Below are positions 8,222-9,854 of a DNA stretch of 64,000 nt, in pieces. The notes under the pieces were generated by a model that did not search any database, was not told the DNA's origin, and saw only the letters and a list, made by a program, of their open reading frames with translations. This DNA is from Escherichia phage SpoonbillGilly: sequence record PP925828.1; one strand, written 5' to 3'. How positions within the stretch are numbered: position 1 is the first letter of the stretch; each line of letters opens with the position of its first letter. A program made the position numbers and the translations under genes.

Positions 8222-9208
8222 ATGACAGATGAAGTAACTAAGAAACCTGAGACCATAAGTGAAGTCGCAGCAGAACTGAGACGTCATGAGGAATCAGACA
8301 AACATAAGTGGGAGAAGGTCAAAGCCTACGAAAAAGAACATCGTGAACACGATGAAGATGATGAAGAAGATGACGATGATGAACATTGTCATAAACATGG
8401 AAAACATAAAATGCAAGAACCAGTAAACGTATTCACTAGTGGCTTCCCTGGCCTAATGGGTGGTTATCCAGCAGTTGCTAACGGTGCTTTCGGTGGTGAA
8501 GGTATGGGTCTATTCGGAGCTATCTTAATCGGTGCTCTATTAACAGGTGGATTCGGTGGTTTCGGTGGTTTTGGCCGCGGTGCTGGTGTTGCCGCTGAGG
8601 GAACTGCTGTGGACGCGATCCTTTCTAACCAGGATACTGCAAGTATTCTAGCTGCAATCAACACTACTCGTACTGAAGCTAATCAGGGTACTGGTGCTGT
8701 TCTGAGTGCAGTAAATGGTGTAGGAGCTGCTCAAGCTGCTAGTACTCAACAGCTTCTGACTACGATCTACGGTACTGGTGCTAACCTGTCCAACCAGATC
8801 TGTCAGGAAACTCGTAACGTTATTCAGGGTCAGTTCGATCTTTCTCGCCAGATGGATCAAGCTTTCGCTGCTAACCAGATCGCACGTGCTCAAGACAAGT
8901 TCGATACCGCTCAGATCATGTTTGCTCAGTCTATCCAGACTAACAACCAGTTCGCTGCTGTAGCTGCTCAGGCTTGTGCTAACCAGAACGCTCTGGAACG
9001 TCAGATCGCTGAATGCTGCTGTGAACTTCAGTCTGCAATCGCTGGTGTAACTACTGCGCGTATTCAGGACGAACTGAACGAATGCCGTCTGCGTGAAGCT
9101 ATCGCTCAGGGTAGTGGCGCTAACGGTCAGGTAATCAACCAAATCGCTGTAAGTCTTGGTGCTATCACTCAGACTCTGGCTGGTCTGCAGGCTAAACTGC
9201 CGGCTTAA
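8222..9208 (+). CDS. hypothetical protein with acidic His-rich N-terminus and Gly-rich hydrophobic segment (329 aa)
   Basis: AGGAGG RBS 8 nt before ATG 8222; DEDDEEDDDDEH stretch, GGFGGFGGFGRG stretch, Q/A-rich C-terminal half; host-like optimised codons. Confidence 0.6.
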   Translation: MTDEVTKKPETISEVAAELRRHEESDKHKWEKVKAYEKEHREHDEDDEEDDDDEHCHKHGKHKMQEPVNVFTSGFPGLMGGYPAVANGAFGGEGMGLFGAILIGALLTGGFGGFGGFGRGAGVAAEGTAVDAILSNQDTASILAAINTTRTEANQGTGAVLSAVNGVGAAQAASTQQLLTTIYGTGANLSNQICQETRNVIQGQFDLSRQMDQAFAANQIARAQDKFDTAQIMFAQSIQTNNQFAAVAAQACANQNALERQIAECCCELQSAIAGVTTARIQDELNECRLREAIAQGSGANGQVINQIAVSLGAITQTLAGLQAKLPA

Positions 9209-9230
9209 TAATTAAGGGGAGGAGCCCATC

Positions 9231-9650
9231 ATGAGTAAATATGGTTTTGTGAACAACGGATTTAATCAAAGTATGGGCTCCCAGCAGCCCGTTCCGGGGC
9301 TTGATAACCCCTACTTACAACAGTTGCAACAGAGATTGGCAGAAGCACAGCAAATGCAAAATTCCCTGCAAAACCCGCAGGGAAACATCAACCAGATGCA
9401 AATGCAGCCGCAAATGCAAATGCAACAAATGATGCCTCAGCAGATGATGCCTCAGCAAATGCAACCACAGCAGCAGATGACCCAACAAACCCAACAACCG
9501 CAGGTATCTGCGGAAGGACAGGCTGTTCTAGCCCTTTTCGAAGACTTCGCTAAAACAGAGGATGGAAAGCAACTTGTATCACTTATGGGTAAGTTTAACA
9601 GTTTCTGTCAAAGTCAAGTTGCAAAAGCGCAAAATGGGGAGAAATCCTAA
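9231..9650 (+). CDS. Gln/Met-rich low-complexity protein (139 aa)
   Basis: GGAGG RBS; PQMQMQQMMPQQMMPQQMQPQQQ tract. Confidence 0.55.
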   Translation: MSKYGFVNNGFNQSMGSQQPVPGLDNPYLQQLQQRLAEAQQMQNSLQNPQGNINQMQMQPQMQMQQMMPQQMMPQQMQPQQQMTQQTQQPQVSAEGQAVLALFEDFAKTEDGKQLVSLMGKFNSFCQSQVAKAQNGEKS

Positions 9651-9659
9651 GGAGTTTAT

Positions 9660-9854
9660 ATGTGTTGTAGAAAACCTACGTCATGCTGCCCAATGCCTGT
9701 AGCACGTTGTTGCTCTCCAGCAATGTTTACGCAAATACCGGTGTTCAATCCGTTTGCCTTTAAGCCTACTCTTATCCTGCCCCCTAGAGTAGATTTTCAG
9801 TCAAGATTGGTCTCCCGTATGGGTGGTTGCTGTAACAAGAGTATATGGTTCTAA
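9660..9854 (+). CDS. small Cys-rich protein (64 aa)
   Basis: AAGGA RBS; CC doublets (MCCRK, SCCP, RCCS, GGCCNK). Confidence 0.45.
   Translation: MCCRKPTSCCPMPVARCCSPAMFTQIPVFNPFAFKPTLILPPRVDFQSRLVSRMGGCCNKSIWF

Follow-up and report, generated by a model that had tools for sequence, protein, structure and literature searches.

A plus-strand island of Escherichia phage SpoonbillGilly is the Epseptimavirus copy of the T5.077-T5.078-T5.079 operon, a mobile and dispensable cassette that may encode a membrane-associated scaffold

A 64,000-nucleotide stretch of Escherichia phage SpoonbillGilly (sequence record PP925828.1), referred to below as the window, contains an island of three plus-strand open reading frames (ORFs) at positions 8222-9854. 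The island is the Epseptimavirus copy of the operon T5.077-T5.078-T5.079 of phage T5. It is a self-contained accessory transcription unit, made up of a sigma-70 promoter, three close-packed genes (P1, P2 and P3) and an intrinsic terminator, and the trio has been inherited and moved as one unit across unrelated phages. The function that we favour for it, at a probability of roughly 35%, is that of a non-enzymatic, thiol-linked, membrane-associated scaffold with an accessory role in the envelope or in competition. An earlier description made from the letters only (here the sequence-only reading) had proposed three plus-strand ORFs amid minus-strand genes, and these are present at exactly the positions it gave. 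What that reading had missed is that the operon is known and annotated in T5, that it is a mobile and dispensable cassette, and that invariant cysteine motifs occur in all three proteins.

The T5 operon (NC_005859, 37954-39720) is a plus-strand trio that lies between promoter P12 and a bidirectional terminator, beside the SPFH-like gene T5.080. Gene order, promoter hexamers, leader and terminator are the same in the two loci. The T5 proteins have 321, 138 and 64 amino acids (aa) and those of the island 328, 139 and 64, with an identity of about 90% for P1 and 94% for P3. The loci differ in their left neighbour, which in T5 is the Toprim-like T5.076, and in the lengths of the acidic/His tract and of the Gln/Met linker. 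In the T5 record the three genes have no annotation beyond 'hypothetical', and no mention of their names was found in the literature searched. P1 matches PHROG 8119 over residues 1-328 (E 2.4e-196) and P2 matches PHROG 7894 over residues 1-138 (E 2.4e-65); both are families of unknown function.

The elements of the unit and the parts of P1 are as follows.

8118-8126, plus strand: A/T element TTTTTAAAG, just upstream of the -35 hexamer.
8132-8160, plus strand: sigma-70-type promoter TTGACA-17-TAAAGT, from a consensus scan; counterpart of T5 P12.
8161-8221, plus strand: 5' untranslated leader with the Shine-Dalgarno sequence AGGAGG (8208-8213), from reading of the sequence.
8222-9208, plus strand: P1, 328 aa, 34.6 kDa, pI 4.8; orthologue of T5.077.
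9014-9022, plus strand: codons of the CCC motif of P1 (Cys265-267), within Q-x-C-x-N-x-N-A-L-x-x-Q-I-A-E-C-C-C-E.
9231-9650, plus strand: P2, 139 aa; orthologue of T5.078.
9660-9854, plus strand: P3, 64 aa, 7.2 kDa, pI 9.3; orthologue of T5.079.
9864-9901, plus strand: intrinsic terminator of the operon, a hairpin (9864-9892) with a GAAA loop, followed by the U-run UUUUCUUUU.
9904-9944, minus strand: intrinsic terminator of the convergent SPFH gene, from scan and folding.
P1, aa 12-44: charged N-terminal helix, with a variable acidic/His tract and the EPVNVF motif after it.
P1, aa 67-127: Gly-zipper hydrophobic segment.
P1, aa 140-324: one long helix.

The promoter comes from a scan that was not enriched overall, with 2 sites found against 7.8 expected from shuffles. 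It is nevertheless credible, because it coincides with the P12 annotated in T5 (NC_005859), because both hexamers and the upstream TTTTAAAG are kept in 8 aligned T5-like loci, and because variation around it is low: 8% of positions 8100-8221 are variable among 11 genomes, compared with 42% in neighbouring intergenic DNA. The sole change in the hexamers is TAGAGT, an A to G substitution at the third base of the -10, in the diverged T5-like contig L024. In this contig and in a second diverged one, L025, the flanks have diverged and the hexamers are kept; TTTTAAAG is invariant in all eight loci, these two included. The A/T element at 8118-8126 is possibly an UP-like element. The leader is 97-100% conserved, and its folding gave nothing significant (z -0.6). 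Each ORF is preceded by a strong Shine-Dalgarno sequence (AGGAGG for P1, GGGGAGGAG for P2 and AAGGAG for P3), and since the GTG at 8213 from the ORF listing falls within the first of them, the start of P1 is the ATG at 8222.

The promoter candidate and the convergent terminator pair after the island, both put forward by the sequence-only reading, were correctly identified. The plus-strand hairpin at 9864-9892 folds with a dG of -22.2 kcal/mol (z -4.6), and none of 200 shuffles folds as well; the minus-strand hairpin, within 9911-9944, has a dG of -20.7 (z -3.3). The operon terminator is A-rich on its 5' side and is potentially bidirectional. In T5 the corresponding site carries the annotation 'efficient bidirectional rho-independent terminator'.

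The three ORFs are genuine genes. When the window was compared pairwise with 23 T5-like loci, the ratios of nonsynonymous to synonymous divergence (dN/dS) were 0.13-0.20 for P1 and 0.09-0.25 for P2. For P3, the evidence comes from more distant copies. An ORF of this type (60-69 aa) stands directly after P2 and is followed by a terminator in T5, in L024 and L025, in a lambdoid temperate phage (L026) and in the Pseudomonas phage RSP (L028/L032). Across these five diverged lineages the protein begins with Met-Cys-Cys, or with Met-Cys-Gly-Cys-Cys in the lambdoid copy, and the diverged copies have one to three further CC doublets in a Pro/Phe/Ser-rich body. Because the DNA of the diverged copies is no longer alignable, this conservation is at the level of the protein. 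Matches to P3 at 85% identity or more were found by tblastn in 221 phage records, where the gene is often unannotated.

An alternative is that P3, or another of the ORFs, is not a gene and that 9660-9854 is conserved as a non-coding RNA or DNA element. The unusually low synonymous divergence of P3 (dS 0.07-0.15, against 0.4-0.6 for P1) is in its favour, as is the absence of P3 from the annotation of many GenBank records. We regard this alternative as extremely improbable. The ORF with its MCC start, CC doublets, own Shine-Dalgarno sequence and terminator is kept in five lineages whose DNA cannot be aligned; variability remains highest at the third codon position, even if only 0.19 of third positions vary; and a search for an RNA element in the region gave no Rfam match and no significant fold of the coding part (z -1.5). 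A coding gene with an added constraint at the nucleotide level fits better. In T5-like genomes the corresponding third-position variation is 0.40-0.55 in P1, P2 and the SPFH gene. Variability at synonymous sites is lower in P3 than in the neighbouring genes by a factor of two to three; the centre of the gene (9698-9834) is as conserved as the promoter.

The cassette is frequently absent from close relatives. P1 was found by tblastn in 222 phage records, all T5-like, and 436 records contain a D5 protein at least 90% identical to that of this phage; from these numbers, and from the 221 records with P3, the island is present in about half of the close T5 relatives. In the Tequintavirus Bas33 (HildyBeyeler) the island is absent, and the remnant of P12 and the leader (window 8150-8193) is fused directly to the terminator and SPFH side (window 9901-10166), a clean deletion of all three genes. 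The orphan P12 remnant of Bas33 (contig L029, 6090-6400) faces the terminator, with its -10 TAAAGT intact and its -35 decayed to TTGATT. A second natural variant, T5Mos, was described in a study of the PARIS system as a viable, plaque-forming T5 with a deletion of 30661-38625 (PMC11464382). On the assumption that the two coordinate systems agree, this deletion takes P12 and the first ~560 nt of T5.077 (38064-39029). The operon is dispensable.

The same three genes occur on unrelated backbones. In the lambdoid temperate phage the cassette lies antisense between a Q-type antiterminator gene and the holin, lysozyme and Rz genes, and in lambdoid contigs it is followed by a bidirectional terminator. 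In Pseudomonas aeruginosa phage RSP (63 kb) it is flanked by terminators and placed beside the terminase genes, and it is also present in the diverged T5-like contigs L024 and L025. Homologues of P2 occur only where P1 occurs, and none has an informative name. No P1 was found in bacterial genomes (GTDB, one genome per species).

This pattern is that of the phage morons and related accessory cassettes, of which lambda bor and lom and HK97 gp15 are examples. Like them, the island is an autonomous promoter-to-terminator unit placed between conserved genes. It has its own predicted promoter and terminator, and here, as in T5 and the lambdoid contigs, it runs on the strand opposite to its neighbours. 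It also deviates in GC content (47.0%, against 38.1% in the left flank and 40.6% in the whole window), is present in some relatives and absent from others, is dispensable, and is found in unrelated phages. It differs from morons in comprising three genes rather than one and in being carried mainly by virulent phages, and its proteins are unlike any moron product that has been characterised.

The composition described in the sequence-only reading is borne out: a His-rich acidic tract, a Gly-rich segment and a Gln/Ala-rich C-terminus in P1, Gln/Met repeats in P2 and CC doublets in P3. Of residues 1-66 of P1, 56% are charged and 12% are His; Gly makes up 34% of residues 67-127, and the C-terminal part has 19% Ala and 13% Gln. 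Among the 139 residues of P2 are 37 Gln and 14 Met. Two of the features that the reading relied on, the His-rich acidic tract and the Gln/Met repeat, are not conserved: diverged homologues have them in altered form or not at all. Aligned P1 homologues, with identities as low as 41%, differ in the acidic/His tract, and several have none. The N-terminal helix is conserved, as are the EPVNVF(T)NG motif, the glycine zipper GMGxFGGILIGALLxGGxGGFG and the C-terminal stretch NGQVINQIAVSLGAITQTLAALQAK. C252 and C265-267 are invariant in 15 homologues over the same range of identity, and the CCC motif is at least 90% conserved across the 41 members of the wider superfamily described below.

P2 is organised in a comparable way. 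Its two ends are conserved, with a YLQQLQQRL..AQ..Q helix at the N-terminus and S.E....L.LF..FA.T.DGKQLV...GKF...CQS, which includes the invariant Cys126, at the C-terminus. The linker between them (aa 41-92) is rich in Pro and Gln, in some cases with Met, and is variable in length and composition; the Gln/Met repeat is specific to this clade. P3 starts with MCCRKPTS and is Pro/Phe-rich, with 8 Cys in four CC doublets. The features that are conserved are therefore the glycine zipper, a very long helix and the CCC and CC motifs, and not the conspicuous low-complexity tracts. Some P2 homologues (Seabear, ESCO40, EH3 and UTK0010 in GenBank/UniRef) are labelled 'cAMP-dependent protein kinase catalytic subunit'. 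These proteins contain no kinase domain, and the label arose from their Gln-rich low complexity.

The same residues could suggest that the operon is a metal-handling module, whose His-rich acidic tract, Met-rich linker and Cys doublets serve as ligands for Ni, Zn or Cu and which sequesters or delivers the metal during infection. In some relatives the His/Asp/Glu tract has grown to HHHHHEH...EHEHHH, distant homologues show recurrent HKH-type repeats ahead of the EPVNVF motif, P2 has M-x-M repeats, and the CCC and CC motifs are invariant. The Helicobacter proteins Hpn and Hpn-like have a similar composition. We think such a role quite unlikely, because the His tract and the Met repeats are missing from L024, L025, the lambdoid phage and RSP (L028), where the cysteines alone are conserved. 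No metallothionein or metallochaperone family was matched, and a helix of about 185 residues would be superfluous for metal storage.

The sequence-only reading had also proposed that the products are not enzymes, and the searches agree with this. P1, P2 and P3 had no significant match in Pfam or NCBIfam, and no family of the PADLOC-DB defence models was reached at E ≤1. Sequence-profile searches of the PDB returned SlyB (E 0.37) and ZntR (E 1.1), neither of them significant, and no match for P3. An exhaustive HMMER search with P1 against 1.84 billion representatives gave only 20 matches, none of them named, and neither the superfamily alignment nor P2, when used for profile searches, led to an informative name. 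SlyB, the best PDB sequence match of P1 (chain 7ojf_A), is a glycine-zipper membrane protein of the 17-kDa antigen family, and P1 likewise has a hydrophobic segment rich in G-x-x-x-G, GMGLFGAILIGALLTGGFGGFGGFG. P1 differs in having no lipoprotein signal and no Pfam match to the glycine-zipper families at E ≤1, and the remainder of the protein is unrelated.

P1 is part of a wider superfamily of 41 members, which includes proteins of phage contigs with holin and amidase families typical of phages of Gram-positive hosts (for example P0034, P0038 and P0045-P0063, 23-31% identical to P1). Their similarity to P1 is weak, and their architecture is consistent with it. These proteins share with P1 the Gly/aromatic-rich hydrophobic segment, the long low-charge helix, the motif L-(A/S)-x-C-C-C-(E/D) and a C-terminal LP/KLP motif, and their genes occupy accessory positions near tail-fibre and lysis genes. 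They differ in that there is no P2, and many have a Cys-doublet-rich C-terminal tail (...VPNPFTGCCGNNY...GCCG) on the same polypeptide, with no separate P3.

The structure of P1 was predicted with AlphaFold2 (AF2) as a single chain. A first run was poor, with a confidence score (pLDDT) of 52; the deeper alignment of 41 sequences gave a confident long helix and no fold. The charged helix 12-44 has a pLDDT of 92-95, the Gly-rich part is disordered, and an uninterrupted helix extends over residues 140-324, with a pLDDT of 76-93 for most of it (aa 170-300). As predicted, P1 is an elongated chain, all of it helical but for the disordered Gly-rich segment. At 1.5 Å per residue the helix of ~185 residues has a calculated length of ~27 nm. 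Since a lone helix of 27 nm cannot be stable, the P1 helices presumably bundle or oligomerise. A Foldseek search with the model against PDB and BFVD returned nothing below E 3.8.

The codon usage of P1 also sets it apart. Its fraction of E. coli-preferred codons (Fop) is 0.74, compared with a mean of 0.52 (standard deviation 0.10) for 53 ORFs of the window, and the values of P2 (0.48) and P3 (0.41) are ordinary. Comparable values are found only in the D5-like DNA-binding protein, another DNA-binding protein, SSB, an early gene annotated as 'tail fibre' and the SPFH gene, which points to P1 as a stoichiometric, abundant product. The early-region 'tail fiber protein' gene (PHROG 1491; 13995-14633, minus strand) has a Fop of 0.72 and the SPFH gene (9968-10912, minus strand) one of 0.69; these values suggest high expression of both genes.

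Taken with the model, a presumably abundant product with a long unbroken helix and disordered Gly-rich and charged regions could be a purely cytoplasmic filament or a condensate, the latter already suggested by the sequence-only reading. It would be a scaffold resembling intermediate filaments, built of long P1 helices whose end domains are Gly-rich, in which the CC-rich P3 cross-links and the P/Q linker of P2 bridges, and which organises phage replication or assembly or disorganises host structures. The sole Foldseek matches were vimentin chains, and keratins offer a compositional parallel to P1 and P3 in their rods, their glycine loops and the CC-rich keratin-associated proteins. We consider a filament of this kind unlikely. 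The vimentin matches, at E 3.8-8, are all non-significant and were counted as no evidence. The helix has no significant heptad periodicity and is 12% charged, unlike known coiled-coil rods. The conserved hydrophobic segment would be left unexplained, and it would be odd for an organiser of replication to be encoded by a dispensable operon that is often lost.

The hydrophobic segment itself allows another arrangement, in which P1 is a bitopic inner-membrane protein with a cytoplasmic N-terminus and a ~27-nm helix across the periplasm, as a strut of the spanin, TolA or Lpp type. The CCC motif and the other cysteines would form interchain disulfides, and the assembly would alter the envelope or block the entry of the DNA of other phages. 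The layout of a charged N-terminus, a hydrophobic Gly-zipper and a long low-charge helix rich in Ala, Gln, Asn and Thr agrees with such a strut, and so do the calculated length of the helix, which is close to the width of the periplasm, and the position of the cassette next to lysis genes in lambdoid contigs. CC and CCC motifs form interchain disulfide knots in extracellular coiled coils and in collagens. Against this, neither P2 nor P3 has a signal peptide, a lipobox or a hydrophobic span, and both would be cut off from the part of P1 that bears the cysteines and is most conserved. The hydrophobic segment scores as marginal, and in the lambdoid copy as absent. Distant homologues have no Lys or Arg in the N-terminal tail, and several have an Arg after the segment, which favours the opposite topology. 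T5-like phages have spanins of their own (PMC4342426), and the lambdoid phage has a gene of the Rz family. On balance a periplasmic strut appears improbable.

The more specific idea of a two-component spanin was rejected, as P3 has neither a signal peptide nor a lipobox, the cassette is antisense to the adjacent lysis genes, and these phages possess separate spanins. The resemblance to Rz/Rz1 is superficial: a hydrophobic segment followed by long Cys-bearing helices, a small Pro/Cys-containing partner and a location beside lysis genes in lambdoid contigs. The marginal segment of P1, however, does not have the position expected of an i-spanin: it begins at about residue 97, after a charged region of ~65 aa. 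P3 is not a lipoprotein, the genes are on the opposite strand (antisense in the lambdoid phage), and Rz-type spanins are already encoded.

The scaffold that we favour places the proteins on the other side of the membrane. P2 and P3 have neither a signal peptide nor a hydrophobic span (the best 19-mer of P3, which has no lipobox, scores +11 kcal/mol), so both must be in the cytoplasm, and the conserved part of P1 that bears the cysteines is probably there as well. P1, P2 and P3 would form one oligomeric complex, with P2 as a flexible tether. P3 would cap or cross-link the complex through its thiols, which would bridge metal ions in the reducing cytoplasm or form disulfides where exposed, and the Gly-zipper segment would hold the complex at the cytoplasmic face of the inner membrane. 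The complex would not be part of core replication or assembly. As the operon is presumably made early in T5-like phages and is moron-like in a temperate phage, modification of the envelope of the infected or lysogenic cell is the most likely role. The benefit may be competitive, whether by exclusion of other phages, by stabilisation of the envelope or by countering a membrane-acting defence.

Several observations weigh against this scaffold. The complex, the thiol linkage and the role in envelope or competition are deduced from gene linkage, conserved cysteines and genomic position. Membrane association, which the sequence-only reading had suggested, is plausible but marginal. The predicted insertion free energy of the hydrophobic Gly-zipper segment in T5-likes is +1.6 kcal/mol, comparable to the +2.6 kcal/mol of the N-terminal anchor of the SPFH protein of the same phage. 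Such a value makes the segment only marginally membrane-competent; in several homologues it exceeds +4 kcal/mol, and in the P1 of the lambdoid phage no hydrophobic segment qualifies by score. The AF2 model of P1 is of a single chain only and has a pTM of 0.26. In the long helix, a periodicity of 3.4-3.7 residues was reached by 85 of 1000 shuffles, so that there are no significant global heptads. The possibility that P3 is the detached Cys-rich tail of the fused P1-like proteins, a Rosetta-stone relationship, was rejected as unproven, since a hidden Markov model of the tail scores real P3 no better than shuffled P3; the resemblance is compositional only. The one RNA-seq and proteomics set that was found for the T5 group is from Bas33, which has no island (PMC13250531). 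The paper on phiR2-01 describes no plus-strand block in the early region of that phage.

A bolder form of the same idea is a skeleton built by the phage and cross-linked by cysteines, in which P1 rods, P2 tethers and P3 stitches line the inner membrane and remodel or armour the envelope. Keratin rods stitched by keratin-associated proteins are a parallel. Such a skeleton would, for example, exclude competing phages or resist abortive infection that targets the membrane, and the P1-like superfamily of contigs with Gram-positive-type lysis genes would be its single-chain version. We regard this as speculative and rather improbable.

T5 is a classic model phage, and the operon is present in about half of its sequenced relatives, with a well-conserved promoter and with P1 codons that suggest abundance. 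That the trio travels together between virulent, temperate and Pseudomonas phages is new, as are the identity of its conserved features and the existence of natural deletion variants, Bas33 and T5Mos, for comparison. A block of 'hypothetical proteins' thereby becomes a defined, testable accessory module. If it is a device for envelope modification or exclusion, it would be a new component of competition between phages, with relevance to the use of T5-like phages in biocontrol and therapy. Should no role be measurable, the operon simply joins the other dispensable morons.

The surroundings of the cassette are typical of the group. A 2-kb query around the island matches 396 phage records, nearly all of them T5-like phages of Salmonella and Escherichia. 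Its identity to genomes of Epseptimavirus is 98.9-99.8%; Escherichia phage IrmaTschudi and the Salmonella phages EH2, EH3 and EH5 share 98-99% with it. The annotated relatives of the window belong to the Demerecviridae, subfamily Markadamsvirinae, genus Epseptimavirus, and the window has 16 tRNA genes, as expected for the T5 tRNA region. The same query is 99.8% identical to the record 'Campylobacter phage A148', which names Campylobacter jejuni as host; the sequence is that of a typical Salmonella/Escherichia Epseptimavirus, and the host label is doubtful. Fragments of P1 and P2 of T5-like type (P0056 and P0069) are deposited as 'hypothetical protein [Enterococcus faecalis]', probably because phage DNA contaminated those assemblies or was binned wrongly.

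In the contigs of phages whose lysis genes are of Gram-positive type, the gene after the P1-like one encodes a beta-rich protein of ~135-157 aa with a Cys cluster (VCCCDLN, GCGCCGK), located at 4377-4787 in L030, 8960-9364 in L035 and 9036-9509 in L033. L030 and L035 also have a small protein with an HExxH motif further downstream, which hints at a larger conserved accessory block.

To the left of the island, on the minus strand (6222-8007), genes for a NadR-like nicotinamide-nucleotide adenylyltransferase and a PnuC-like transporter form an NAD salvage pair. Homology with Tequintavirus stops at about 7920-7980, and T5 has the Toprim-like T5.076 where NadR and PnuC stand here. The right neighbour is the gene for an SPFH/band-7 protein (9968-10912, minus strand); among the loci compared, its linkage to the cassette is not consistent outside the T5-like phages. 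Between it and a tRNA-Arg gene is a minus-strand ORF of 66 aa (10924-11124), which is missing from all ten aligned T5-like loci (gap fraction 1.0) and is an annotated hypothetical gene in Epseptimavirus records. The terminator stem of the SPFH gene holds Pu-GCGC (9919-9922), the T5 nick consensus, and the T5 record has a 'major DNA single-chain interruption' at the equivalent position; the terminator hairpin and the nick site appear to coincide.

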